From Candidatus Aminicenantes bacterium (GTDB taxonomy: Bacteria > Acidobacteriota > Aminicenantia > Aminicenantales > Saccharicenantaceae), in the NCBI GenBank assembly GCA_963796835.1, contig CAWCND010000022.1, positions 1 to 64,000 on the forward strand: 64,000 nt of DNA, read 5' to 3'. Each line of letters begins with the position of its first letter. The first letter of the stretch is position 1. Made by a program: the position numbers and the translations under genes. A model generated the notes under the pieces. The model saw only the letters and a program-made list of their open reading frames with translations, did no database searches and had not been told where the DNA came from. Below are positions 51,255 to 62,545 of this stretch, in pieces.

Positions 51255-51795
51255 AAACCCGGCCGAAGCTCATCGGTCTGACCGGCACCAACGGCGCCGG
51301 CAAGGGAGAGGCGGCGGCATTTTTCATGGCCGGGGCTATGCGTACGCTTCGCTCTCCGACATCCTCCGCGAGGAGCTCCGGGACCGCGGCCTGGAGATCA
51401 CGCGAGACGGCCTGATCAGCGAAGGGCAACGAGCTGCCGGGAAAGATTCGGCCCCGACGTCCTGGCCCGCCGGACCATGGCCAAGGTGGCCGGGCCGACG
51501 GTCATCGACAGCATCCGCAACACCCGCGGAGGTGGCCGTCCTGCGGGACGCCGGGCGATTCGTCCTGCTGGCCTTCGACGCGCCCGCCGAGGTGCGCTTC
51601 GGCCGCGTCACGGCCCGCGGCCGGAACGAGTCGCGCCGCGACGCTCGAGGAATTCCGGAAGGAAGAGGACGAGAGAAGCGGGACGGCGGCGGCCGCCCAG
51701 CAGCTCCAGCCTGCATGGCCCTGGCCGACCGAACGATCGTCTGGAACGACGGCACGATCGAAGACCTGCACCATCGCCTGGAGGAAATCCTATGA
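51251..51795 (+). CDS. Small P-loop NMP/dNMP kinase-like protein (AAA_17/dephospho-CoA-kinase-like). Several apparent frameshifts.
   Basis: KLIGLTGTNGAGKGE Walker A directly after the ALDH stop (ATGA overlap). Remaining frames give ...GYAYASLSDILREELRDRGLEITRDGL... and ...ADRTIVNDGTIEDLHHRLEEIL. Confidence 0.45.
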
Positions 51796-52315
51796 CGCCC
51801 ACGCGCACTCCAAGGAAGAGTATTATCTGGGCATCGCCAAGGAGGTGGCCCGCCGGAGCACCTGCTTCCGCCGGTCCATCGGGGCGCATCATCGTCCGGG
51901 ACGACCAGATCATCTCCACGGGCTACGTCGGCGCGCCGCGCAAGACCAGGACAGCGTCGAGCACGGCTTCTGCCTGCGGGACCAGCTCGGCATCCCCCAC
52001 GGCCAGCGCTACGAGCTCTGCCGGAGCGTCCACGCCGAGCAGAACGCCATCATCAACGCCGCCCGGGCCGGGGTCAGCCTCCTCGGCGGCGACATGTATA
52101 TCTATCGGGAGCGCGCCCGGAGACCGGCAAGCGCGATCAACGCCTTCCCCTGCTTCATCTGCAAGAAGATGATCATCAACGCCGGTCTCGTCCGCGTCGT
52201 CTGCTCGACCGCGGCCGGGCTGCACGCAGAGTCTTTCGCATCGACGAGTGGGCCCGGGCCTGGCGCGAAGCGCGACATCCTCGACGACACACACCAGTAC
52301 GGGAAAAAATCATGA
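51792..52315 (+). CDS. dCMP/cytidine deaminase family protein (ComEB-like), frameshifted near its start
   Basis: EEYYLGIAKEVARRSTCFRRSIGA..., HAEQNAIINAARAG (zinc-binding HAE) and PCFICKKMIINAG (PCxxC). Confidence 0.7.
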
Positions 52316-52483
52316 CGGCAGGGGTCGCCGGGGGCCGAAGCCGCCTCGCCCTGCTGACTCTGACTCGCCGCTCGTCCGTTCCAGGGCCAACCGCTCGCCC
52401 GCTCCCGGCCGGACACGGAATGGCAGGCCCGCGGCCGAGCGACGGCCCGGGCTCCTGCGCCTCCTGGGCATCGACGCCTCGCC

Positions 52484-54523
52484 CGAATCGATGGACTACG
52501 TCCGTCAACAAAACCCAGTTCCAGCTCCATACCCTGCTCACCGAGCAGCGCCACCCCAAGACCTGGAATCCTCGAGCGAGCGGATCCAGAAGGACACCGC
52601 AGGCCGGACTGCGGATGCTCTTCGCGGTCGACGAGGACGTCGCCGGCCAGGCTCGAGCCATGGCGGCCGAACGGCGGCCGCTCGACCGGGCTCGTCGGCG
52701 AGCCATCGAGGCCGCTGTCCTGGCCAAGAGGAAATCTATGTCTACGGCTGCGGCGCCACGGGGCGGCTGGCCAAGCAGATGGAGAGCGTCCTTCTGGCGC
52801 CCGTTCTGGCGAAAGGTCAAGCCGAGACCGAAGATCTGGTCCAAGCTCGCCGGGGGCCTCGTCGCGGGCGATCGAGGACGAGCTCGTCGGCGAGATGACC
52901 GGCGGCGACCGGGCCCTGATCAGCTCCCTCGAGGGTTTCGAGGACCTCCAGCTCATCGGCCGCCTGCAGCTCCGGACCGCGGGATGCCAGCGGGCGACGT
53001 CGTCATCTGCGTCACCGAGGGCGGCGAGACGTCTCGGTCATCGGCACGGTCCTGGGGGCCTCGAGCAGTGGACGGCGCGGCCCGGCTACGACCCGCGCGC
53101 AAGCCGGAGGAGCCTTTACTTTATCTACAACAACCCCGACGACAAGCTCCTGCCCTTCGAGCGCAGCCGGAAGGTCATCGAGGAAGCCGGGCATCACCAA
53201 GATCAACCTGACGACCGGCCCCCAGGCCATCGCCGGCTCGACCCGGATGCAGGCCACGACGATCGAGACGTTCGTCTGGGCAGCGCCCTCGAGACGGCCG
53301 TCGAGCGCTCCTGCGCAAGGCCCTCTCCGCGAAAGGAGATGGCGCGGCTCGGGCTTCCGGGAGGCCGGTCGACGATCGGGGCCAGGCTGAGGCAGTTCGC
53401 CTCGGTGCTCGGAGCGACGCAGGAGAGCGCTCCCGGCTCTGGCCCGGCTGACGGACCTCGAGGCGGAGGCCTACGCCGACGGCTGTTTCTCAACTTATTT
53501 CGCGGACGAAGGCCTGATCACCGTCTTCATCGACAGCACGGAGCGAAGCCCGACGTTCCGGCTCTATCCGCTCGACACCGTCAAGGAGCCCCAGCGCAAA
53601 TGCTGGATCCAGGTCTGGACGGGGGCGCGAGACGGGCCGGGACGCCTGGCGGGCTTTCCTGGGACGGCCGTTCCGGGGCCTCGCCGCGAGTCCTACCGGG
53701 CGCCCTTCGAAGAGAAGATCGACGATCCGTACCTCCGGCGGGCGGCCCTCGAGAGCCTGAAAAAGGCGGGCGACGACCAGGCAGGACCTCTACGATTTCT
53801 CCTTCTCGGCGTCAAACCGCGAAACCCGGGGGCCGAAATCCGGCGACCTGGGGGTCCTCGTCGCCCTCCCGCCCGAGGCGATGGAATTCCGGAACAACGG
53901 GTCCGTATTTCCGGCGCTTCATGGACCTCTTTGCCGGGGACGGGATGAGCTTGGCCGTCCTTCTTGTCACGGACGCGGATCCCAAGACCGCCGCGAGGCT
54001 CAAAGAGCAGGTCCGGCGGGCCTACAAGGGCAAGCCGGACGCCCTCCGGGTCGTCCTCGTCCAGGTCCCGGCCGCCGGGCCCGGCGATCCCTTCGGCCTG
54101 AACGGGCAGGTCGCGGTCAAGATGATCCTCAACGCCCACTCGACGGCGGTCATGGCCAAGCTGGGCAAGGTCATCGGGAACACCATGACCAACGTCAGCC
54201 CGTCGAACCTGAAGCTCATCGGGCGCGCGACCTATCTCATCCAGTCCCACGTCAATGATGTCCTGGGGCGGGCGGCGTGGGGCAAGGCGAACGGCAGGCC
54301 GAAGCAGATCTCCTATGGCGAGGCCAACGCGGTCCTGTTCGATTCGATCGCCTATCTGGGAAACCGGCAGAAAGAGGCCGGGCAGACGGCCGAGGTCGCC
54401 TTCTCTATCGTCCGCTCCCTGGAGTCCCTGAAGCTGATGCGCGCCGTCAGCCATGACGAGGCGCTGGAGATTATCAGGACGACCGGGCTCGCCGCGTACC
54501 TGGCCGGCGCCAAGGGCGGCTGA
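52484..54523 (+). CDS. Two-SIS-domain protein of the MurQ/GckR family (N-acetylmuramic acid 6-phosphate etherase-like). At least 3 apparent frameshifts.
   Basis: FQLHTLLTEQRHPKTWN, KIYVYGCGATGRLAKQ and the C-terminal ...GQVAVKMILNAHSTAVMAKLGKVIGNTMTNVSPSNLKLIGRATYLIQ are MurQ-signature-like. Total length ~680 aa implies a GckR-like duplication. Confidence 0.5.
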   Translation, partial: RIDGLRPSTKPSSSSIPCSPSSATPRPGILERADPEGHRRPDCGCSSRSTRTSPARLEPWRPNGGRSTGLVGEPSRPLSWPRGNLCLRLRRHGAAGQADGERPSGARSGERSSRDRRSGPSSPGASSRAIEDELVGEMTGGDRALISSLEGFEDLQLIGRLQLRTAGCQRATSSSASPRAARRLGHRHGPGGLEQWTARPGYDPRASRRSLYFIYNNPDDKLLPFERSRKVIEEAGHHQDQPDDRPPGHRRLDPDAGHDDRDVRLGSALETAVERSCARPSPRKEMARLGLPGGRSTIGARLRQFASVLGATQESAPGSGPADGPRGGGLRRRLFLNLFRGRRPDHRLHRQHGAKPDVPALSARHRQGAPAQMLDPGLDGGARRAGTPGGLSWDGRSGASPRVLPGALRREDRRSVPPAGGPREPEKGGRRPGRTSTISPSRRQTAKPGGRNPATWGSSSPSRPRRWNSGTTGPYFRRFMDLFAGDGMSLAVLLVTDADPKTAARLKEQVRRAYKGKPDALRVVLVQVPAAGPGDPFGLNGQVAVKMILNAHSTAVMAKLGKVIGNTMTNVSPSNLKLIGRATYLIQSHVNDVLGRAAWGKANGRPKQISYGEANAVLFDSIAYLGNRQKEAGQTAEVAFSIVRSLESLKLMRAVSHDEALEIIRTTGLAAYLAGAKGG

Positions 54524-54544
54524 GGCGGTTTGACCCCTCCTTGA

Positions 54545-55655
54545 TTACGGGAGGGGCGGACCGTCGAGGTCGTAGCACGGCGGGGAAGCCGGTCGCGGTT
54601 TCCGCCGGGCCTTCGATCCGGTCTGCGGGTAGACGAAGACCTCGCCGGCGTAGTTCCGCATCACGACCTGCTCGTCGTTGATCGACTGGACGTAGTTCGG
54701 GATGAGCGGGATCTTCCCGCCGCCTCCCGGCGCGTCGATGCAGTAATACGGGACGGCCATGCCGGACGTCCAGCCTCTCAGGGCGTCCATGATCTCGAGC
54801 CCCTTCTCGACCGTCGTCCGGAGGTGCTCCGTCCCGCTCACGTAGTCCGCTTGGTAGATATAGTACGGCCGGACCCGGACCGCGAGGAGTTTCTGCATCA
54901 GCCGTTTCATCGTCTGCGGGTCGTCGTTGACGCCCTTGAGCAGGACGGTCTGGTTTCCGAGCGGAATGCCCGCGTCGGCCAGCATGGCGAGGGCCTTCGT
55001 CGCTTCCGGCGTGATCTCGTCCGGATGGTTGAAATGGACATTGACGTAGAGCGGGTGGTACTTGCGGAGCATCGCCACGAGCTTCTCCGTGATCCGCTGC
55101 GGCAGGACGCACGGCACCCGGGTCCCGATCCGGATGATCTCGACGTGGGGAATGGCCCGGATGGCCTTGACGATGTTCTCGATCTTCCGGTCGCTGAGCA
55201 TGAGGGGGTCGCCGCCCGAGATGATGACGTCGCGGACCTCCGGGTGGGCCCGGATATACTCGATCCCGCCCTTCGAGGTAGCGCGGATGGATCTTCGACG
55301 GGTCTCCGACCTTCCTCTTCCTCGTGCAGAACCGGCAGTAGGAGGCGCAGCTGTGCGAGACGAGGAACAGGACCCGGTCGGGATAGCGGTGGACGATCCC
55401 GGGCACCGGCGAATCCTCGTCCTCGAGCAGGGGGTCGGCGTCCCCGGTGTTCTCCTTGAGCTCGGCCGGGTCGGGGACCATCTGGCGCCACATGGCGTCG
55501 CCCTTCTCCTTGATCAAACTGGCATAGTGCGAGGTGATCTGGATCTTGAACACGCGGGCGATCCGCTTGACCTCCTCCAGATCGAGTCCGAACGTGCGGG
55601 CGATCTCCTCAGGCTTCCTGAGACTGCCCTGAAGCAAACGTTGCCAGTCGTCCAT
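54545..55655 (-). CDS. kamA: KamA-family radical-SAM aminomutase, predicted L-lysine 2,3-aminomutase (apparent frameshift near 55260)
   Basis: CASYCRFCTRKRKV radical-SAM cluster motif. YYIYQADYVSGTEHLR and YCIDAPGGGGKIPL keep the two Asp residues I recall as binding the lysine epsilon-amino group. No EpmA partner nearby. Confidence 0.7.
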
Positions 55656-55673
55656 CTCCTCAAGACTCCTTAC

Positions 55674-56147
55674 TCACCGAAAATATTTCGCATAAATGAC
55701 GCGATCGTCGCCCGCCTTGTAATAATCAGGGATCCGGGCGACTTCCTTGTAGTCCAGGTTGATATAGAACTGCCGCGTGGGGTTGTACTTGGGCTGCGAC
55801 GAGGTCTCGATGATGATCATCCGGCCGCCGATCTTCAGGACCTCGGCCTCGAGCCACCGGACGAGCGCCTTCCCGTGCCCTTTCCCCTGCTCCGCCGGCG
55901 AAACCGCCATCCAGTACAGGTCGTAGCCGTCTTCTGCGAGCGGGGTCGGCCCCCAGGTCAGGTACCCGGCGACCCGCTTCCGCTCGTTCTCGATGACGAC
56001 GACCCGGTAATCCTCCTGCTCCGGGACGCCGAGACAGATGTCGATGAGCTCTTCGGCCACGTCGACCTCGGCGGGCGTGAACATCCCCGTGGCCCGGATG
56101 AGGTCGAGGACCGGCGCTTTATCTTGCGGCTGCAGCGGACGGATCAT
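55674..56147 (-). CDS. GNAT-family N-acetyltransferase (157 aa)
   Basis: Acetyl-CoA motif A region ...WMAVSPAEQGKGHGKALV.... 18 bp upstream of kamA. The 5' end overlaps ATP-grasp gene 1 by 29 nt, so the start is uncertain. Confidence 0.7.
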   Translation of the reverse strand: MIRPLQPQDKAPVLDLIRATGMFTPAEVDVAEELIDICLGVPEQEDYRVVVIENERKRVAGYLTWGPTPLAEDGYDLYWMAVSPAEQGKGHGKALVRWLEAEVLKIGGRMIIIETSSQPKYNPTRQFYINLDYKEVARIPDYYKAGDDRVIYAKYFR

Positions 56148-57153
56148 TCGTCTCTCTTCTCTTCATGGCGTTCTGAAGCATCGTCTTCCAGAAAGCCGCG
56201 TATTCGATGCCCGCCGCCTTCAGGGCCCGGGCGTATCCGGCGTTGAGGCTGATATCAGGGTTCGGGTTGACCTCGAGGATGAAGATCCGGCCTTTGCCGT
56301 CCATGCGGAAATCGACGCGGGCGTAATCCTGGCAGCCCATGGTCACGAACGCTTCGACCGCCACGGCCTGGAGCTTCTGGCGGAGCTCATCCTCGATGGG
56401 CGCGGGGCAGACCGGCGGCGTCTTCTGGTAGAGCGGATGGTCCTCGAACCACTTCGCCTCGTAGCCGCAGATCTTGGGCATCCCCTTGGGCATCTGGGAA
56501 AAGTCGATCTCGGAGACCGGCAGCGGCACGACCGACGCGTTCTCCATCACGGAGACGTTGAACTCCCGGCCGTCGATGTACGGCTCGATCAGGGCCGGCT
56601 GATGGTAGTTGTCGAGCACGCGCTGGACCTGCCGCCGGAAGTTCTCCTCGTCGTGGACGACGGACTCGGGGTAGATGCCGAGGCTCGCGTCCTCGGAATT
56701 CGGCTTGACGATAATCGGGAACTTGAGCTCGAGCGGCTGGCCGGCCAAGAACATGAGCTGGGCCGACGCGGTCGGGAGGTTGCACGACCGGAGGACGGCC
56801 TTGGCCTTGTGCTTGTCCTGGCAGATGGCCAGCGTCTTCGACTGGTTGCCGGTGAAGGCGATCCCCAGGAGCTCGAAGATGCCGGCGACGTTGGATTCCC
56901 ACTGGGGCCGGCCGAAAAATCCCTCGCAGAGATTGACGAGGACGTCGGGGTTCTCTTCCTTGACCCGGTTGAGGAAATTGAGAAGGCTCCGCTGGAGCGG
57001 GATGAGCGTCGTCCTGCACCCCAGGGTCTTGACCGCTTCGTTGACCTGCTGGGCCATCTCGGCCACGGACTCCTCGGACAGGCGCTCGCCCGTCCCCGTG
57101 GGTCTCGGTTCGAAGGCGTTGAAGACGATCCCGACGTGGGATGGAGGGTTCAT
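56119..57153 (-). CDS. ATP-grasp ligase of the D-Ala-D-Ala-ligase (Ddl/L-amino-acid-ligase) family, copy 1
   Basis: FELLGIAFTGNQSKTLAICQDKHKAKAVL, IIVKPNSEDASLGI, GREFNVSVM and RVDFRMDGKGRIFILEVNPNPD align with Ddl central and C-terminal domains. Confidence 0.7.
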   Translation of the reverse strand: MNPPSHVGIVFNAFEPRPTGTGERLSEESVAEMAQQVNEAVKTLGCRTTLIPLQRSLLNFLNRVKEENPDVLVNLCEGFFGRPQWESNVAGIFELLGIAFTGNQSKTLAICQDKHKAKAVLRSCNLPTASAQLMFLAGQPLELKFPIIVKPNSEDASLGIYPESVVHDEENFRRQVQRVLDNYHQPALIEPYIDGREFNVSVMENASVVPLPVSEIDFSQMPKGMPKICGYEAKWFEDHPLYQKTPPVCPAPIEDELRQKLQAVAVEAFVTMGCQDYARVDFRMDGKGRIFILEVNPNPDISLNAGYARALKAAGIEYAAFWKTMLQNAMKRRETNDPSAAAAR

Positions 57154-58259
57154 GCTCGAGCTGCTTGGACCGCCGGCCTCTCGACGACCGTGGGCCGGAC
57201 GCGGGTCGTCCGGAGAGCGCAGCGCTGCACGGCTTCGTCCACGACCCGGTGGATCAGGTCTGAATACGAATACCCCGCCGTCCGGGCCGCCTTGGGGAGG
57301 CAGGAGTTGTCCTCGGGGTTCGGCAGGATGCCCGGCAGGGGGTTGACCTCAAGGATGTTGGGCTCCCCCTTCTCGTCGAGCCGGACGTCGATCCGGCACC
57401 AATCCCGGATGCGGAGGACGGCGCAGGTCTTGGTGACGATCGTCTCGATCTTCCTTTTCAGGTCCGCGGACGTCTCGGCCGGGCACTTGAAGATCTCGAG
57501 AGGGCTCGCGGGGGTGTCCCAGATCCACTTGGCTTCGTACGAATAGATCGGCGCCGCGCCGGCGGGCAGCTGGCCGTGGTCGATCTCGACGATGGGCAGG
57601 ATCTCGTGGTTCGGATAGTTCCCGAGGACACCGACGGTGAACTCCCGCCCGCCGATGAACCGCTCGACGATCGCAGGCTGCTTGTACAGAGCGATGACCT
57701 CGTTGACGCGCTCGTGGAGCTCCGCGGCCGTCCGGACCAGGGAGTTGTTCTTGATCCCCTTGCTCGACCCTTCGAAGAGCGGCTTGACGATCGCCGGGAG
57801 CCGGATGCCGCTCGGGACATCTCCGGGCGATTCGATGATCCAGAACGGCGGGTTCGGGATCCGGTGGAAGGACAGGATCTCCTTGGCCCGCGATTTGTCG
57901 AGGCAGACGCCCAGGGTCAGCGGGTCCGAGCCCGTGTAGGGGATGTTCAGCATTTCGCAGACCGTGGGGATGTGCGACTCGCGGTTCGGCCCGAAGAGCC
58001 GCTCGGAGATATTGAACACGAGGTGGGGCTTGAGCCGCTTCAGACGAGCATAGGCCTTTTCATCGGACTCGATGCGGAAGACCTGATGCCGTTCCTGGAG
58101 GACCTGCTCAACGGCCGAGATGGTCTCGTCGGAATCGCATTCCGCGAGCAGGTCAGGTGGCGATGGAGGCTCGTCCTCCTCGTCCCGGCGTTCCTCGGGG
58201 CGACGAAAGAGCGTCGCTTCCATTCCCGATTTCGAGCTGCAAAGCAAAGCTACTTTCAT
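57150..58259 (-). CDS. ATP-grasp ligase of the Ddl/L-amino-acid-ligase family, copy 2 (N-terminal ~45 aa acidic extension)
   Basis: CEMLNIPYTGSDPLTLGVCLDKSRAKEIL, AIVKPLFEGSSKGI, GREFTVGVL and RIDVRLDEKGEPNILEVNPLPG. ATGA overlap with copy 1. Confidence 0.7.
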   Translation of the reverse strand: MKVALLCSSKSGMEATLFRRPEERRDEEDEPPSPPDLLAECDSDETISAVEQVLQERHQVFRIESDEKAYARLKRLKPHLVFNISERLFGPNRESHIPTVCEMLNIPYTGSDPLTLGVCLDKSRAKEILSFHRIPNPPFWIIESPGDVPSGIRLPAIVKPLFEGSSKGIKNNSLVRTAAELHERVNEVIALYKQPAIVERFIGGREFTVGVLGNYPNHEILPIVEIDHGQLPAGAAPIYSYEAKWIWDTPASPLEIFKCPAETSADLKRKIETIVTKTCAVLRIRDWCRIDVRLDEKGEPNILEVNPLPGILPNPEDNSCLPKAARTAGYSYSDLIHRVVDEAVQRCALRTTRVRPTVVERPAVQAARA

Positions 58260-58365
58260 CGCTCTTGATCCTTCAACTCAAATTCTCGTACGTTCCCTGC
58301 GCTGTCACCATGGGAATGTCCTGAGATTCTTTCTTCTACATTCTCTAAAATAAAAAATCATTCTA

Positions 58366-58393
58366 TATATAGTCCTATTTCACGAATTGTCAA
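58366..58393 (-). promoter_or_regulatory. Strong sigma-70-type promoter on the minus strand (TTGACA, 16-nt spacer, TATATA) about 100 nt upstream of the ATP-grasp/GNAT/kamA operon
   Basis: Reverse complement of 58366-58393 reads TTGACAattcgtgaaataggacTATATA. Lies in a 315-bp AT-rich gap. Confidence 0.55.
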
Positions 58394-58486
58394 GTTTTTT
58401 CTCCGGGTGAGCCACCTTTTTTTGTAGAGAAGAAGAAAATCGGCACCATTAGTGGTGTCAGATCCGCGCTTCTGCACGCCTCTCCA

Positions 58487-58534
58487 AAACCGGACGGCCG
58501 GCGATGAACAAAGAACGGCGACGGCCGGTCCGGA
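58487..58534 (-). terminator. Possible stem-loop terminator after the NhaD-like gene
   Basis: Minus strand CCGGACCGGCCG...CGGCCGTCCGG imperfect 11-bp stem followed by TTTTGG. No strong U-tract. Confidence 0.25.
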
Positions 58535-58574
58535 GTTTCTTTCGAAGACGGGCGTTGTCGAACTTCCGTTCGGA

Positions 58575-59822
58575 TCACCGGAAGAAAACGACCGTGACGA
58601 GGATGTAGAGCGGGATGAGGACGGCTCCCGAATAGGCCATGTAGCCGAAGAACGACGGCATCCTGACCTTGGAGTTCTCCGCGATGCACTTGACCAAGAA
58701 ATTGGGGCCGTTCCCGAGGTAGGAGTTGGCTCCCATGAAAACGGCCCCGGCGCTGATGGCCTTGAGGACGAGCGGCGGGATCCCCGCCGGAACGCCGCCG
58801 AGCCCGAGCCCCTGGGCCAGGGCGAAGAACGCGAGATACGTCGGGGTGTTGTCGAGGAACGCGGAGAGCCCTCCGGTGGCCCAGAAGAATTGCCATGGTC
58901 TCGTCATCCCCAGTTCCGCGGCCCGGGCATGGAGGATGAGAAGGGCCGGGACCATGGTCAAGAAGATCCCGGCGAAGAGGATGGCGACCTCCAGGATGGG
59001 GTCGTAGGCGAACCGGTTCTCCTCCCTCAGCGATCTTTTTGTCGTGGCGAGGGACAGTCCGGCCATGAGGATGAGGGCCCCCTCCCGGGCCGGGAACGGA
59101 AGGAACATCGCCCCGACAACGCCACCGACCCAGGCCAAGTTCAAGGTCCCTTTCACGCGGAGCGGCACGACCCGCTCGCGGTCGCGGATGATGTCTTTCA
59201 TCGTTTCCCGGTCGTACTGATAGCTGTCGAGAACGAAGAAGACGAGGAGGACGGCTCCGACCATGAGCGCCCAGACCGGGAAGAGGCGCAGCGTCCAGAA
59301 GAACGGGACGCCTTTGAGAAAGCCCATGAAGAGCGGCGGGTCACCGAGCGGTGTCAGAGAGCCGCCGATGTTCGAGACCAGGAAGATGAAGAAGATCGGG
59401 ACATGGGCCGTGCGATGCCGCTCGCGATTTGTCCGGAGCAGAGGCCGGATGAGGAGCATGCTGGCTCCGGTCGTCCCCACGAAGTTGGCCAGGACGGCGC
59501 CGATGAGGAGGAAGGCCGTGTTGACGAGGGGGGTCGCCCGGATGTCGCCGCGGACGACGACCCCGCCGGAGATGATGAAAAGGGCCGCGAGGAGGATCAT
59601 GAACGAGGCGTAATCCTTGACCGAGAGAAGGAGCCCGCGCGGCGCGCGGAGCAGGAACAGGACGACGACGGGGAGGGACCAGAGGGCCGCGACCAGCGCT
59701 TTGTTTCGGTGCCGCTCCCAGAATCGCCGGGCCCGCAGGGGGAGCAGGGCGATGGACAGAAGAAGCCCCACGAAGGGGACGAAGGTCCAAAGCGGCAGCG
59801 CGCGCCCGAAGCTATCGATCAT
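58575..59822 (-). CDS. ArsB/NhaD/CitMHS-superfamily ion-transporter permease
   Basis: 415 aa with ~11 TM helices. NhaD-like repeats (GSLTPLGDPPLFMGF, GLSAFLDNTPTYLAF). Confidence 0.6.
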   Translation of the reverse strand: MIDSFGRALPLWTFVPFVGLLLSIALLPLRARRFWERHRNKALVAALWSLPVVVLFLLRAPRGLLLSVKDYASFMILLAALFIISGGVVVRGDIRATPLVNTAFLLIGAVLANFVGTTGASMLLIRPLLRTNRERHRTAHVPIFFIFLVSNIGGSLTPLGDPPLFMGFLKGVPFFWTLRLFPVWALMVGAVLLVFFVLDSYQYDRETMKDIIRDRERVVPLRVKGTLNLAWVGGVVGAMFLPFPAREGALILMAGLSLATTKRSLREENRFAYDPILEVAILFAGIFLTMVPALLILHARAAELGMTRPWQFFWATGGLSAFLDNTPTYLAFFALAQGLGLGGVPAGIPPLVLKAISAGAVFMGANSYLGNGPNFLVKCIAENSKVRMPSFFGYMAYSGAVLIPLYILVTVVFFR

Positions 59823-59941
59823 CGCTTATCTATTGTAACGGAACATACCCGTTCCGCGAAAGGCCGGGACGGGCTCGGATCCATTTTTTTTCTCGATGGA
59901 TCGGATGAGAGCGGGCCTGCTGCCCATTCTTCCGTCTGGCC

Positions 59942-60802
59942 CTAAGGGAGGAACGCCATGGAGAGATAGAAGGCCCGGAGGGGGAGCTTCCTCCTGAGCG
60001 CTCTCCGCTCGACGGGCCTCTGGAGCGATTGGCGGTCGCTCGGCGGTGTCTGGAAGGAGAGGACGGCGCCGGCCTCGAACAGGCTTTCGAGGACGGGAAG
60101 CGGCAGGCCCGCCTGTACGTACACGGCCGCCCTGGAGCCGGCCGCCCGCGCGGCCCGGATGACGCCGAGGCCGAGTTCGGTCGGCGGGCCGGCCTCGAGG
60201 CTCCGGTCCGAGAAATGGACCCAGGCGCCTCGTGAAGCGATCTCCGTCAGGCCGGGGGTCAAAGGGCCGTGGTGATAATAAACGAAGTAACCGCGGCCGT
60301 CGGCTGCGCAATCCGCGAGCTCCGCCAGGGCGGCGGAGTCCCGGGCCTGTTCCCGGTTCGAGAGATGGACGTCCATTCCGGAGGCGGCGAGGTTCCGGAG
60401 CGCGGGCAGGGAAAGCCTCTCCGCGCCGGCATCCGGCCCGATCGGGCCGTTGTGGAGATAAGCGAGGAACGATCCGGAAGCCCGGCAGGCCTTCAGGAGC
60501 CTGGCGAGCTCCGCTTCGCCCGGCCGGGCCTCGGCCGACGTGTAGCAGCGGACCTTTTCCCGGATCAGCCATTCGAGGTCGCTTGGTTCGAACCGTCCCG
60601 TGTCGAGCAGGCTCACCCCGATCCCCTTCGTCCGGGCGGCCCGAGCCGTGTCGAGGAGGGCTTCCCGCCCGAACTGGTCATCCCGGATGACGATGTCGCG
60701 GCCGAGGCGGACCCGGTCGAGGAGCTCGTAGGTCCTGACGACGTCCTCGATGCCCTGTTCAACGGGATGTTTGTCCATGATCGGAATTTCAAGATATACC
60801 AT
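59942..60802 (-). CDS. Hypothetical protein with three ~45-aa internal repeats
   Basis: Repeats ...LLDTARAARTKGIGVSLLDTGRFEPSDLEWL..., ...LLKACRASGSFLAYLHNGPIGPDAGAERLSL... and ...LAELADCAADGRGYFVYYHHGPLTPGLTEI.... No known domain recognised. Confidence 0.4.
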   Translation of the reverse strand: MVYLEIPIMDKHPVEQGIEDVVRTYELLDRVRLGRDIVIRDDQFGREALLDTARAARTKGIGVSLLDTGRFEPSDLEWLIREKVRCYTSAEARPGEAELARLLKACRASGSFLAYLHNGPIGPDAGAERLSLPALRNLAASGMDVHLSNREQARDSAALAELADCAADGRGYFVYYHHGPLTPGLTEIASRGAWVHFSDRSLEAGPPTELGLGVIRAARAAGSRAAVYVQAGLPLPVLESLFEAGAVLSFQTPPSDRQSLQRPVERRALRRKLPLRAFYLSMAFLP

Positions 60803-60858
60803 CCGGGCCGACGAGTGTCAAATGGTCGGACAGGTCCTGGCCCGGCAAACCTCGCCGC

Positions 60859-61602
60859 TTGAAAAAGGCGTGGTTGTCATCTATCATCGGGGCGGAGCCG
60901 AGAAACGTGAAATCCTGTGCCGTCTTGTTTTCTGGCGGGATCGATTCGACGACCGCCCTCTACTGGGCGCTCGAACGATACGACAAGGTCTTTCCTCTGA
61001 CCTTCGATTACGGCCAGCGGCACCGGGTGGAAGTCCGGTTGGCCGGGCGGCTTGTCCGGAAGCTCGGGCTGGTTCGGACGGTCCTCAAGGTCGACCTGAG
61101 CCAGATCGGCGGCTCGGCCCTGACCGACCCTTCCATCCGCCTTCCCCGCTTCAAGGCGGCCACGCGGCTGCCGGCGGGCCCCCCCGCGACCTATGTCCCC
61201 TTCCGCAACGGCATATTCCTAGCCGTCGCGGCGGCCTGGGCGGAGGCGCGGGGCGTGCGGGACCTCGTCTGCGGGTTTCATATCATCGATTCGCCCGACT
61301 ACCCGGACACGCGGAGGGAGTTCGTCCGGGCCATGGAGCGGGCCATCAACCTCGGAACGGCGGCCGCGTTCGGCGGCCCGAAGGCCCGCGTCCTCGCGCC
61401 CTTCCTCGGCCTGAGCAAGGCCGAGATCATCCGGAGGGGGCTGGCGCTCGGAGCCGATTATTCGACTTCGGTCTCCTGCTACGCGGGCCGCGAGGCACCG
61501 TGCCGGACATGCTCGTCGTGCCTCCTGCGGAGCTCCGCTTGGAAAGAGGTCGGCCGCGACGACCCGCTCGTCGCCCGGCTCCGGAAGGAAGGAAGATCAT
61601 GA
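60859..61602 (+). CDS. queC: 7-cyano-7-deazaguanine synthase QueC
   Basis: SCAVLFSGGIDSTTA PP-loop. C-terminal Zn-binding cysteines (CYAGREAPCRTCSSC). Confidence 0.85.
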   Translation: MKKAWLSSIIGAEPRNVKSCAVLFSGGIDSTTALYWALERYDKVFPLTFDYGQRHRVEVRLAGRLVRKLGLVRTVLKVDLSQIGGSALTDPSIRLPRFKAATRLPAGPPATYVPFRNGIFLAVAAAWAEARGVRDLVCGFHIIDSPDYPDTRREFVRAMERAINLGTAAAFGGPKARVLAPFLGLSKAEIIRRGLALGADYSTSVSCYAGREAPCRTCSSCLLRSSAWKEVGRDDPLVARLRKEGRS

Positions 61603-61946
61603 GCTGGACACTTAAAGTCAGGGACAGGTTCTCCGCCGCCCACTATCTCGAAGGATACAAGGGAAAGTGCGAAAAGGTCCACGGCCACACGTTCCAGGTC
61701 GAGGTCGAGATCAGGGTCGAGGGACTCGACACGACGGGGATCGGGATCGACTTCACCCAAGTCAAGGAAAAGCTGGCCTCGGTCCTCCCCGATCACACGC
61801 TCCTTAACGATAGGTATCCCTTCAACCCTTCTGCCGAGAACCTGGCCCGCCACTTCTACGGCGAGCTCAAGAGATCTTATCCCATCCGGGCCGTGACGGT
61901 CTGGGAATCCGAGGATGCGTCGGCCACGTACGTTGAAGACGATTGA
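61599..61946 (+). CDS. queD: 6-carboxy-5,6,7,8-tetrahydropterin synthase QueD
   Basis: 115 aa. [28 protein letters not shown] (CxxxHGH motif). ATGA overlap with queC. Confidence 0.85.
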
Positions 61947-62545
61947 GGTGTTCGCCTCCGTCCAGGGCGAGGGGCTCCGTCAGGGGGAACCGACTCTCTT
62001 CGTCCGCCTCGCCGGCTGCAACCTGCGATGCCCTTTCTGCGATACGAAACGCGCCTGGAGGGGCGGACAGCCAGAGGACGGTCGCCGAGATCGCGGACGA
62101 GGTCCGCGAGCTTTGGCAAGTCTGGCCGGCCCGTTGGGTCTGCTTGACGGGCGGCGAGCCGCTGGCCCAGGACATCGGCCCTCTTGTCCGGGCGCTCCGG
62201 CGGCAAGGCCTCTTCGTCCAGGTCGAAACGAACGGCACATTCGAGCCGGCCCCGTCCGTGGACTGGTACACGGTGTCCCCGAAACCTCCGGCCTATGCGT
62301 TCCACCCCGGCTTCAAGAAAAAGGCGCGGGAGGTGAAACTCGTCGTCAGCCGCGGCCTGACCGCCGAAACCGTTCGCGCGCTCCGCCGGGCTTTCCCTCT
62401 CTCGACCCCGATCATCCTCCAACCCCAAAGCAACGCCCCCTGGAGCCGGAGGAAAGCGATGAGGCTCATGAAAGAGGCCTCGCGCCAGGGCCTCGAAAAC
62501 ATCCGCGTCTCCGTCCAGCTCCATAAGATCTATGATCTAAAATAA
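61915..62545 (+). CDS. queE: 7-carboxy-7-deazaguanine synthase QueE (radical SAM). Apparent frameshift near 62050.
   Basis: [39 protein letters not shown] in one frame. ...[12 protein letters not shown]...VETNGT... in the other. Confidence 0.8.

Follow-up and report, generated by a model that had tools for sequence, protein, structure and literature searches.

Candidatus Aminicenantes bacterium carries a self-contained operon of four genes, encoding two Ddl-like ATP-grasp ligases (A and B), a small GNAT acetyltransferase and a KamA-family aminomutase, which we propose to be an orphan pathway to an N-acetylated beta-lysine amide or pseudopeptide (probability roughly 0.55). The four-gene set is present in many anaerobic bacteria and, as the initial annotation had supposed, no characterised pathway with this gene set was found in the literature searched.

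Gene Organization and Limits of the Operon

Six open reading frames follow one another on the minus strand of the window, that is, the whole 64,000-nt stretch of DNA analysed (Table 1). The gene positions and domain calls first proposed agree with the ORF list and with the Pfam and NCBIfam profiles, and the sequence itself confirms the 4-nt overlap (ATGA) between ligases A and B and the 18-nt gap between the GNAT gene and kamA; ligase B and the GNAT gene overlap by 29 nt.

Table 1. Features of the operon and its neighbours on the minus strand, positions 54545-60802 of the window.
Feature	Position	Strand	Evidence
kamA 3' part, from GIEYIRAHPEVRDV to the stop codon, shifted by one base relative to the 5' part	54545..55268	-	translation
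kamA frameshift site, one extra G in a GGG run	55269..55271	-	comparison with four relatives
kamA 5' part, codons 1-128, ending HPRYLE, with the CX3CX2C radical-SAM cluster motif	55272..55655	-	translation
Small GNAT acetyltransferase, 157 aa	55674..56147	-	PF13508 and PF00583
ATP-grasp ligase B, Ddl-like paralogue of A, 344 aa	56119..57153	-	PF07478, E 6.5e-30
ATP-grasp ligase A, Ddl-like, 369 aa	57150..58259	-	PF07478, E 3.3e-32
Promoter-like element of the four-gene operon: TTGACA, 16-nt spacer, TATATA	58366..58393	-	direct sequence reading
Conserved hairpin CACCACTAATGGTG, upstream of the operon promoter	58444..58457	-	terminator-like match
CitMHS_2-family permease, 415 aa, neighbour outside the conserved core	58575..59822	-	PF16980, E 1.7e-151
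Orphan beta/alpha-repeat protein, 286 aa, neighbour outside the core	59942..60802	-	

The promoter element described earlier is literally there, with TTGACA at 58393-58388 and TATATA at 58371-58366. In 11 Aminicenantes loci, neither TTGACA nor the -10 block varies although the intergenic DNA around them has diverged, and the element is found both with and without the permease upstream. It is missing from the output of a consensus promoter scan, since the last base of its -10 hexamer is A and not T. Of the 11 Aminicenantes loci aligned, eight largely keep the hairpin CACCACTAATGGTG: the window and L001 have it unchanged, six have it with one to four substitutions, and L012, L033 and L039 lack it. 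It is possibly a terminator-like element of the upstream gene, or else an operator.

The permease and the 286-aa protein, which the initial annotation had described together with the operon, are outside the unit: both are neighbours in Aminicenantes only and lie upstream of the separate conserved promoter. The permease is upstream in just 17 of 68 loci, all close Aminicenantes, and the 315 nt that separate it from ligase A contain the operon's own promoter. It is indeed a permease, but of the CitMHS_2 family instead of NhaD/ArsB-like, and we take its likeness to ArsB/NhaD to be at superfamily level only. As for the supposed repeat protein, BLAST self-comparison detects no sequence repeat, although the protein is predicted to form nine alternating beta-alpha units; most of its homologues start at the equivalent of Met9 (60778).

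Conservation and Gene Fusions

Among 70 loci with at least 4.3 kb of flanking sequence, 57 carry ligase B, GNAT and KamA beside ligase A in unchanged order, and the four genes are a genuine, co-conserved unit. Taken singly, ligase B is found in 69 of these loci, GNAT in 64 and KamA in 59. The conserved loci span from Aminicenantes to Verrucomicrobiota, Kiritimatiellota and Lentisphaerae (the last three at 52-57% ligase A identity), and matches to the cluster number several hundred among genomes and about 1000 among representative clusters at 50% identity. Across Aminicenantes, the locus lies in conserved core-genome synteny beside que genes. A rearranged form, KamA-ligase-ligase-GNAT behind a sigma54 activator, occurs in cultured Desulfovibrio (Desulfovibrio mangrovi) and on an Oleidesulfovibrio-like contig, and related clusters are found on a Woeseia-labelled contig and one further contig of 3.7 Mb. 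In L063, L086, L088 and L089 the cluster is adjoined by a PF00850 deacetylase, which often carries a fused GNAT domain.

The best 150 representative clusters include 35 tandem two-ligase fusions and three fusions of KamA with ligase A, in both orders. One locus, L092, encodes just a KamA::ligase A protein (702 aa) followed by a ligase B::GNAT-domain protein (518 aa), the GNAT domain of which has no detectable homology to the GNAT of the window. These fusions (KamA::ligase A, ligase B::GNAT and ligase::ligase) indicate that the four activities belong to one pathway, and the KamA::ligase A fusions, together with the two-gene L092 locus, strongly support the earlier proposal that beta-lysine feeds the ATP-grasp ligases.

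The Aminomutase and Its Frameshift

The aminomutase is a member of the KamA family, with Radical_SAM and LAM_C domains and 305 bits against TIGR00238 (cutoff 199). With NCBIfam profiles it scores nearer AblA than EpmB or glutamate 2,3-aminomutase: its best HMM is the AblA-type lysine 2,3-aminomutase (471.7 bits, below the AblA cutoff of 525.4), and it reaches 243.7 against the EpmB model (cutoff 369.3). It retains CX3CX2C, Arg134, Asp293, Asp330 and Lys337 of the solved lysine 2,3-aminomutase 2A5H, the equivalents of the last three lying in the 3' part of the gene. The lysine-binding residues, the PLP lysine and the iron-sulfur motif are conserved, and the enzyme is of the lysine type, in agreement with the initial annotation.

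The gene had been taken to be intact in the window, yet it is split into two frames by one extra G within GAAGGGCGGG, where L006 and L010 read GAA-GGCGG(G/A) and L001 and L007 read GAA-GCCGGG; in relatives, kamA is intact (369 aa). The pathway as written in the window therefore cannot make beta-lysine. We consider an error in the consensus somewhat likelier than genuine inactivation in the recent past. Only one base has been added, within a run of G, and both parts of the gene stay highly similar to intact orthologues, with 97% amino-acid identity to L006 overall and, by tblastn against L001, 95% for the 5' part (frame -3) and 89% for the 3' part (frame -1). The 5' half differs by nine synonymous changes and one non-synonymous change. 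Isolated frameshifts are also present in queE (one) and in a DUF362 gene (two), both 75-95% identical to intact orthologues, and this pattern, kamA included, fits an indel-prone consensus. That the frameshift is real, kamA a recent pseudogene and the pathway on its way to being lost in this genome is the less probable reading, but it deserves serious consideration: kamA has been cleanly lost in five Aminicenantes loci that keep the ligases and GNAT, and the three genes directly downstream (51.3-53.7 kb) combine about 80 single-base indels, mostly outside homopolymers, with raised substitutions (10-14%) in a decay-like pattern.

The Two Ligases and the GNAT

Both ligases are Dala_Dala_lig_C ATP-grasp proteins, with 34% identity between them. 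As had been suspected, they are not ordinary ddl products: they reach 168 bits (A) and 146 bits (B) with the best NCBIfam Ddl model (cutoff 243), their substrate-contact residues are altered, and no mur, ddl or fts neighbours are found in any locus inspected. Their nearest solved relatives are all Ddl or VanA, and the AF2 core of ligase A matches Ddl structures (Foldseek E 8.8e-17), the model being poor in the N-terminal, substrate-binding domain (pLDDT <50).

The ligases share the ATP-grasp fold with Ddl and VanA/VanB and keep every ATP, Mg and catalytic residue. In ligase A, the equivalents of Ddl K97, K144, E180, E187, K215, R255, D257, E270 and N272 are invariant (43 sequences), and the catalytic set of ligase B is invariant too. 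Unlike those enzymes, the ligases here form an A/B pair or a tandem fusion, are linked to KamA and have no murein gene context. By sequence alignment to E. coli DdlB, both ligases have fixed changes at substrate positions: ligase A lacks the equivalents of His63, Glu68, Tyr216 and Leu282 (H63->E86, E68->R93, Y216->W245, L282->C320), and ligase B those of Ser150, Tyr210, Tyr216, Gly276, Ser281 and Leu282. On this alignment, the second-substrate site of ligase B is remodelled (invariant G276->D300, S281->A305, L282->G306, S150->A156, Y216->W235); loss of the Ddl carboxylate clamp and gain of an invariant Asp suggest a cationic amine nucleophile without a carboxylate.

Over its whole length, the GNAT aligns with PDB 2R7H (E 5.9e-32), described as "putative D-alanine N-acetyltransferase of GNAT family". 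It exceeds no NCBIfam cutoff, its weak best match there being RimI, and it is not AblB, with no match to TIGR03827.

Loci Without kamA and the Link to Polyamines

In 11 of the 70 loci kamA does not adjoin the ligases, and the ligase pair is kept. In four loci of the deltaproteobacterial group, L074, L076, L078 and L083, which carry the labels Deltaproteobacteria, Proteobacteria, Syntrophaceae or Thermodesulfobacteriota, an orthologous ligase pair comes directly after speY-speB-pylADC, with a gap of 17 to roughly 60 nt or a 4-nt overlap, and a methyltransferase takes the place of the GNAT. In the Deltaproteobacteria loci, two GT4 glycosyltransferases and methyltransferases come after the ligases. 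The residues examined at substrate positions are identical in KamA-linked and polyamine-linked ligases. The speY-speB-pylADC trio is the published homospermidine route, SpeY-type DHS homologues having been shown to make homospermidine, and that work makes no mention of the ligases (PMC13625781).

Because the ligase pair occurs without kamA in 11 of 70 loci and is operonic with polyamine genes in Deltaproteobacteria, it is not exclusively a beta-lysine device. Judging from this and from the identical residues at substrate positions, beta-lysine may not be a universal substrate of the ligases, unless KamA is encoded elsewhere in the kamA-less genomes. Two further features recall polyamine systems: an acetylpolyamine-amidohydrolase-family gene joins KamA-type clusters, and ATP-grasp ligation onto a polyamine amine has a precedent in polyamine amide ligases such as glutathionylspermidine synthetase. 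Unlike the SpeY/SpeB/ADC clusters, the window contains no polyamine genes.

Alternative Functions

KamA and the GNAT could make N-epsilon-acetyl-beta-lysine as in methanogens, with the ligases serving a different or accessory purpose. A proposal that anaerobic bacteria use this AblAB route exists (PMC3543383), and several features are in line with it: a KamA-type lysine 2,3-aminomutase with AblA as its top HMM, immediate proximity to a GNAT, anaerobic hosts and, beside the fused L092 version, Na+/H+ and K+ transport genes. However, AblA/AblB involves no ligase, whereas here two Ddl-like ligases are obligate partners and the most constant members (69 of 70 loci), persisting without KamA. In some organisms it is to ligase A, rather than to the GNAT, that KamA is fused, and to ligase B that a GNAT domain is fused. 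With KamA under the AblA cutoff and a 157-aa GNAT outside the AblB family, we regard this explanation as unlikely.

A GNAT joined to an ATP-grasp enzyme is also known from NAGGN synthesis, in which the bifunctional Ngg acts with AsnO to give an N-acetylated small peptide osmolyte. The likeness to ligase B::GNAT of L092 is one of principle and by description only, and NAGGN synthesis differs in its glutamine substrate, the lack of an aminomutase and an amidotransferase partner, which is absent here.

We consider improbable an envelope role, in which the Ddl paralogues would decorate peptidoglycan precursors, or some other polymer of the envelope, with a basic residue, either beta-lysine or a polyamine. 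Certain anaerobes do link polyamines covalently to their peptidoglycan, and both the Ddl or VanA kinship of the ligases and the glycosyltransferases and methyltransferases of the Deltaproteobacteria loci are in line with such a role; against it stand the absence of mur, ddl and fts neighbours, scores far under the Ddl cutoffs and replaced D-Ala-binding residues.

The initial annotation had raised another possibility: the cluster would make a bioactive di- or tripeptide for secretion, comparable with bacilysin, rhizocticin or tabtoxin, and its GNAT would confer self-resistance. BacD/YwfE, RizA/RizB and TabS are stand-alone ATP-grasps; they join amino acids without protecting groups, and some of their clusters have two of them, as here. 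Two amide ligases beside an enzyme forming a non-proteinogenic amino acid do resemble L-amino-acid-ligase antibiotic clusters; beta-lysine acetylation is moreover a known mechanism of streptothricin resistance. Those clusters have tailoring, export and resistance genes and a narrow taxonomic distribution, whereas ours, compared by description only, is a compact and very widespread core-genome operon, with a number of matches unusual for an antibiotic. The locus context gives no sign of an antibiotic or of self-resistance, lacking exporter, NRPS and tailoring genes; no exporter, tailoring, regulatory or immunity gene is co-conserved, the permease is lineage-restricted and separately transcribed, and the synteny beside que genes is stable across Aminicenantes. 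We do not favour this idea, which appears as improbable as an envelope role.

Least probable of all is a role in protein modification, with EF-P, for example, receiving beta-lysine or a polyamine and the ligases acting as an ATP-grasp analogue of EpmA or elaborating EpmA/EpmB lysylation: a KamA-family enzyme likewise supplies beta-lysine for ATP-dependent ligation there, the alternative deltaproteobacterial partner of the ligases is a deoxyhypusine-synthase homologue and the GNAT weakly resembles RimI, but EpmA is a LysRS paralogue and not an ATP-grasp, Ddl-type ATP-grasps are known to act on small molecules, KamA misses the EpmB cutoff and the SpeY-type homologues make homospermidine. Neither efp nor epmA is present in the window or in 84 of the 85 loci searched (the first 85 of 93), in agreement with the absence of an EpmA partner first described. 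The exception is L071 (Verrucomicrobiota), where an efp with a KPGKG loop is followed by a genuine epmA (328.9 bits to TIGR00462, cutoff 286.9), 1.1 kb upstream of the four genes; where present, epmA already supplies the ligase.

Proposed Pathway

For the preferred reading, an N-acetylated beta-lysine amide or pseudopeptide, we infer the following steps. KamA, a radical-SAM/PLP lysine 2,3-aminomutase, would convert L-lysine to beta-lysine, and ligase A, with which it is fused in some organisms, would form a first ATP-dependent amide bond involving beta-lysine. Ligase B would make a second amide bond, perhaps with the cationic amine nucleophile suggested above. The GNAT, which some organisms have as a fusion with ligase B, would N-acetylate one amino group. 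The acetyl group would either remain as a cap that neutralises charge at the end of the pathway or protect the amine for a time only; the latter would suit the presence, in several lineages, of a deacetylase of the acetylpolyamine-amidohydrolase family in the cluster. In the window, this pathway would be interrupted at the KamA step by the 1-nt insertion.

Such a system would be modular: the amine would come from KamA or, in Deltaproteobacteria, from the agmatine/homospermidine genes, the ligase pair would act on it, and a GNAT or a methyltransferase would serve as the N-capping enzyme. Its product here would be a small N-acetylated molecule that may serve in the cytoplasm as a compatible solute or a polyamine-like cation.

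Gene layout

ORF listing and translation gave six consecutive genes on the minus strand (54545-60802), which are listed in the table together with the loci of an additional enzyme discussed below.

Genes at 54545-60802 of the window, and loci of the PF00850 protein in homologous clusters from other genomes
Feature	Position	Strand	Length and family
Unannotated protein	59942-60802	-	286 aa; no family match
Permease	58575-59822	-	415 aa; PF16980 CitMHS_2, E 1.7e-151
ATP-grasp ligase A	57150-58259	-	369 aa; PF07478
ATP-grasp ligase B	56119-57153	-	344 aa; PF07478
GNAT	55674-56147	-	157 aa; PF13508 + PF00583
KamA-type aminomutase	54545-55655	-	369 aa once repaired; Radical_SAM + LAM_C
PF00850 protein	L086:9629-11386		
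PF00850 protein	L089:7268-9004		
PF00850 protein	L063:13947-15686		
PF00850 protein	L088:7505-9001		

The initial annotation described tightly packed genes with family assignments to KamA, GNAT and PF07478. Both points held: the two ligase genes overlap by 4 nt (ATGA), 18 nt separate the GNAT gene from kamA, and all three families were matched in family scans. In addition, ligase B and the GNAT gene overlap by 29 nt, and wider gaps lie between the permease gene and ligase A (315 nt) and between the 286-aa gene and the permease gene (119 nt). Rfam, run at a permissive threshold over 54000-61200, found neither a riboswitch nor a leader in the 315 nt between the permease gene and ligase A, the sole match being RtT at chance level (22 bits, E 0.77). 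PADLOC models gave no defence-system match for the five proteins searched, the GNAT, ligase A, ligase B, the permease and the 286-aa protein.

A conserved four-gene core

Scanning the genome collection with a ligase A alignment returned at least 595 relatives. We compared the best 80 of these, plus L001-L005 from an exact-protein look-up, with all six window proteins, and counted core genes in the 70 non-redundant loci with enough downstream flank; greedy ORF clustering, which gave antisense artefacts in high-GC loci, was used only after a cross-check against tblastn labels. Ligase A is accompanied by ligase B in 69 of the 70 loci, by a GNAT in 64 and by KamA in 59. All three occur in 57 of the 70, with gene order and strand preserved, which bears out the co-conservation assumed for the four genes. 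The complete core reaches MAGs labelled Verrucomicrobiota, Kiritimatiellota and Lentisphaerae, where ligase A is 52-57% identical.

Both the permease, found in 17 of 68 loci, and the 286-aa protein gene, in 35 of 68, are limited to Aminicenantes. A promoter-like element, TTGACA-N16-TATA(T/A)A, stands before ligase A and is invariant in 11 loci while the surrounding intergenic DNA has diverged; it is kept with or without the permease upstream. Because the upstream genes are lineage-limited and the element is independent of the permease, the transcription unit is the four-gene core, and the permease and "repeat protein" upstream of it are neighbours only.

Upstream of the -35 of the operon (58400-58460), a hairpin CACCACTAATGGTG and an A-rich block CTACAAAAAAAGGTGG are conserved across Aminicenantes loci; these could be a terminator and an UP element, or a regulator binding site. 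Two loci of unusual origin or content were also seen. One contig (L081) labelled as a "Synechococcus sp. UW140" MAG carries a complete four-gene core with a ligase A 53% identical, which may reflect misbinning or a genuine presence in cyanobacteria. At L049:10001-13855, ligase A is followed directly by KamA and then by an amidohydrolase (PF01979), with ligase B and GNAT absent.

Upstream neighbours

The 286-aa protein has 230 homologues. The 120 listed are all without a Pfam domain and unnamed or called "hypothetical protein", and the few organism labels among them are Aminicenantes, to which the family appears to be limited. Its designation as a repeat protein stands structurally, the model (pLDDT 78.6) comprising nine alternating beta-alpha units, but not at the sequence level, where a BLAST self-comparison found no repeats. 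The model has no specific structural relative. The CitMHS_2 permease may carry a carboxylate into or out of the cell.

On the plus strand, queC-queD-queE (60811-62545) adjoin the 286-aa gene divergently. The match of queC to the intact orthologue in L001 begins at 60811; the ORF has its first start codon at 60859, and TTGAAA-17-TATCAT at 60859-60887 (+) resembles a promoter. Beyond these are queF, EamA, UbiA and DUF362 genes, in a synteny that is stable across Aminicenantes and was seen in L001-L006.

The aminomutase and its reading frame

KamA passes the KamA-family model TIGR00238 (305.2 bits, cutoff 199.2). Its best equivalog is the AblA-type lysine 2,3-aminomutase TIGR03820 (471.7 bits), under the cutoff of 525.4. 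The assignments to EpmB (TIGR03821, 243.7 bits against 369.3) and to glutamate 2,3-aminomutase (TIGR04368, 423.5 bits against 650), which would have undermined the initial reading, both fall below their model cutoffs.

The protein aligns to 2A5H, the solved lysine 2,3-aminomutase of C. subterminale (E 2.9e-114), with the CX3CX2C motif (C-ASY-C-RF-C) at C125, C129 and C132. As claimed for a true lysine 2,3-aminomutase, it keeps Lys337, which binds PLP, and Arg134, Asp293 and Asp330, which recognise lysine; the two lysine-binding Asp, whose replacement marks glutamate 2,3-aminomutase, are thus both retained. Missing from KamA is the C-terminal tail of the C. subterminale enzyme. Its likeness to KamA/AblA thus extends to the broader family and the lysine-specific residues, but not to the equivalog level.

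In the window, one inserted nucleotide at 55269-55271 breaks kamA into two frames. On translation, the first frame covers codons 1-128 (to ...HPRYLE), and the remainder, from GIEYIRAHPEVRDVIISGGDPL, is one base off. The extra base is a G: the window has GAAGGGCGGG versus GAA-GGCGGG or GAA-GCCGG(G/A) in four aligned relatives. The gene is intact, at 369 aa, in the closest relatives L001-L004 (ligase A 95% identical) and L006 (98%). Window KamA is 97% identical in amino acids to that of L006 overall, and its 5' and 3' halves are 95% and 89% identical to L001; differences in the 5' half are nine synonymous and one non-synonymous. Programmed frameshifting was considered and rejected, since the extra base is absent in relatives and no zero-frame stop lies nearby, the shifted frame staying open for 265 codons. 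To us a consensus error seems somewhat more probable than a genuine inactivation of very recent date. Pathway loss in this strain is nevertheless the alternative to keep in view, because five Aminicenantes loci lack kamA outright.

Irregularities were also observed elsewhere in the window. At 51300-53700 (plus-strand genes), about 80 single-base indels occur in 2.4 kb (46 insertions, 34 deletions), mostly outside homopolymers, plus 10-14% substitutions, relative to L006 and L001. Genes that are intact in those two loci (AAA_18 kinase-like, dCMP-deaminase and a 738-aa SIS_2) are here shredded into many frames, and the region, directly 3' of kamA, represents either a patch of poor consensus quality or a block of genes in decay. 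Isolated frameshifts, where tblastn HSPs switch frame, lie in queE (~61990-62075) and in the minus-strand DUF362 gene (~63297 and ~63683); both genes are otherwise 75-95% identical to intact orthologues, which suggests that kamA is not the only place where the window consensus is prone to indels. In L001 (L001:11855-12865), as in L002 and L003, kamA and the SIS_2 gene have an IS200/IS605-type Y1 transposase gene between them. It is absent from the window, where 22 nt separate the kamA and SIS_2 stops.

Two Ddl-like ligases

Ligases A and B are paralogues, 34% identical. Apart from PF07478, the family scan pointed towards L-amino-acid ligases of the BacD/RizA/TabS type only through generic ATP-grasp_3/4 matches, at or under cutoff. 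Both score below the Ddl models NF002378 (168.3 and 146.1 bits for A and B, cutoff 243) and TIGR01205 (131.4 and 133.5 bits, cutoff 245.65). The top 50 Foldseek matches are all Ddl, with a model whose N-terminal domain is of low confidence; in the AF2 model of ligase A this domain has a pLDDT below 50, too poor for 3D analysis of the substrate pocket.

Positions were read on a sequence that we take to be E. coli DdlB. On this ruler, the catalytic equivalents of K97, K144, E180, E187, K215, R255, D257, E270 and N272 do not vary among 43 sequences of ligase A and 34 of ligase B. At substrate positions, fixed changes in ligase A are His63 to Glu, Glu68 to Arg, Tyr216 to Trp and Leu282 to Cys or Ala; those in ligase B are Ser150 to Ala, Tyr210 to Cys, Tyr216 to Trp, Gly276 to Asp (invariant), Ser281 to Ala and Leu282 to Gly. 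The corresponding D-Ala-site residues of the window proteins are E86, W245 and S319/C320 in ligase A and W235, D300 and A305/G306 in ligase B. From these residue patterns, the loss of the carboxylate clamp together with the gained Asp suggests that the nucleophile of ligase B would be an amine with a distal positive charge and no carboxylate.

The ligases thus share with Ddl the ATP-grasp fold and catalytic residues, but differ in model scores, D-Ala residues and gene context, and the initial concern that they might be ordinary ddl paralogues in a murein setting is removed. An envelope function would fit the nearest solved relatives of both ligases, every one a Ddl or VanA enzyme; none of the loci examined has a mur, fts or ddl neighbour.

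The acetyltransferase, rearranged clusters and gene fusions

The GNAT scores above cutoff with PF13508 (40 bits) and PF00583 (34.2 bits). A KamA and a GNAT could by themselves form the plain AblAB osmolyte route to N-epsilon-acetyl-beta-lysine. The core, however, falls outside AblB as it does outside EpmB and glutamate 2,3-aminomutase: the NCBIfam scan gave the GNAT no match to the AblB model TIGR03827 at E <= 0.01, its best match being weak and RimI-like (35.8 bits versus a cutoff of 86.4).

Over its full length the GNAT matches PDB 2R7H (E 5.9e-32), a "putative D-alanine N-acetyltransferase of GNAT family" whose tag is presumably Dde_3044. Homologues of 2R7H led to rearranged clusters. Desulfovibrio mangrovi (CP104208.1) and an Oleidesulfovibrio-like contig have the order sigma54 activator, KamA, Ddl-like, Ddl-like, GNAT; a Woeseia-labelled contig, where the second ligase was seen only as fragmented tblastn matches, and an unlabelled 3.7-Mb contig have the same cluster without the activator. 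The Desulfovibrio G20 neighbourhood is corroborated via Dde_3047, a SpoIIE phosphatase (PMC8836040). A gene of the histone-deacetylase/acetylpolyamine-amidohydrolase family (PF00850) follows the cluster in L086, L088, L089 and the Aminicenantes-like L063, and is not in the window. Its product of ~580 aa, which in most cases has a GNAT-like region at the N-terminus, is encoded beside the cluster repeatedly in unrelated lineages. A Planctomycetota GNAT homologue was rejected as a cluster member, as it does not cluster with ligases.

Of special interest are natural fusions. An exhaustive representative search gave 1020 clusters (50% identity) at E <= 1e-30, and among the best 150 of these were 35 tandem two-Ddl-module fusions and three KamA/ligase A fusions, in both orders. 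At L092:195-3873, the system consists of two genes: the first joins KamA to ligase A in one reading frame of 702 aa, and the second joins ligase B to a GNAT domain (518 aa). The best evidence for a single pathway of all four activities, in which ligase A receives the KamA product, comes from these Rosetta-stone fusions. The L092 pair adjoins Na+/H+-exchanger and TrkA_N genes.

Polyamine-linked and EF-P-linked loci

KamA is missing from 11 of the 70 loci. In four Deltaproteobacteria-group loci (L074, L076, L078, L083; labels Deltaproteobacteria, Proteobacteria, Syntrophaceae or Thermodesulfobacteriota), speY (a deoxyhypusine-synthase homologue, undetected in L076), speB (agmatinase) and a pyruvoyl-ADC gene stand immediately before the orthologous ligase pair (e.g. 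L078:2837-7449). The 3' side carries a methyltransferase, two GT4 glycosyltransferases and another methyltransferase, and neither kamA nor GNAT is present in these loci. A deoxyhypusine-synthase homologue, agmatinase and pyruvoyl arginine decarboxylase constitute the SpeY/SpeB/ADC homospermidine pathway, in the description of which the ligases are not mentioned (PMC13625781). In two further Deltaproteobacteria-labelled loci (L072, L080), the pair stands after a third ATP-grasp-like gene, itself preceded in L080 by a pyruvoyl decarboxylase, and before a GNAT that is either fused to a methyltransferase or has one behind it. Substrate positions are alike in KamA-linked and polyamine-linked ligase orthologues. 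The ligase pair is thus a module accompanied by a basic-amine supplier, in most cases KamA and in some cases polyamine genes.

The initial statement that the aminomutase has no EpmA partner is correct for the window, where tblastn detected no efp, epmA, speY, speB, pylADC or HDAC-like gene, and for 84 other loci lacking efp and epmA, but fails for one. In L071, a Verrucomicrobiota MAG and the only such case among 85 loci searched, efp (KPGKG loop, Lys34-type) and a bona fide epmA (TIGR00462 above cutoff) lie 1.1 kb upstream of the core (L071:70-1552), in the order efp, epmA, DMT transporter (other strand), ligase A, ligase B, GNAT, KamA. One could imagine the ligase pair as a new route that modifies the conserved lysine in EF-P or in some other component of the translation machinery. 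The three alternative partners of the pair (a KamA/EpmB-like aminomutase, efp-epmA, a deoxyhypusine-synthase homologue) are all part of chemistry extending the EF-P/IF5A lysine. We nonetheless consider this very improbable.

A possible pathway and its significance

From the observed gene content, conservation, fusions and residue patterns we infer the following as the most likely chemistry. KamA would convert L-lysine to beta-lysine, ligase A would form an ATP-dependent amide bond involving beta-lysine, and ligase B would add a second amide bond, to a cationic amine. The GNAT would then N-acetylate the product, and the PF00850 enzyme, where encoded, may take the acetyl group off again. The end product would be an acetylated beta-lysine amide or pseudopeptide of small size, which probably stays in the cytoplasm and serves as a compatible solute or polyamine-like cation; a secreted antibiotic is an alternative of low probability. 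We give a probability of about 0.5 to the reading that the operon makes a new class of N-acetylated beta-lysine/polyamine amide metabolites in many anaerobic phyla.

All four enzymes come from known superfamilies, and beta-lysine-derived metabolites and ATP-grasp amide-ligase pathways are known kinds; full-text literature searches found no description of the combination of KamA, two ligases and GNAT. Conserved synteny and natural gene fusions tie a lysine 2,3-aminomutase to two re-purposed D-Ala-D-Ala-ligase homologues and an acetyltransferase. Sister clusters, in which the aminomutase is swapped for homospermidine genes or an acetylpolyamine-amidohydrolase-type enzyme is added, hint at a link between beta-lysine and polyamines. 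With genome hits numbering several hundred and roughly a thousand sequence clusters, the operon ranges over Acidobacteriota (Aminicenantes), the Verrucomicrobiota/Kiritimatiellota/Lentisphaerae group, Desulfobacterota and Gammaproteobacteria, and its product is therefore probably an unrecognised, common metabolite of bacteria in anoxic peat, sediment and groundwater. Because the cluster occurs in culturable, genetically tractable Desulfovibrio and the structure of the GNAT in that cluster is solved (2R7H), the pathway is directly testable, making this widespread and conserved operon experimentally accessible.
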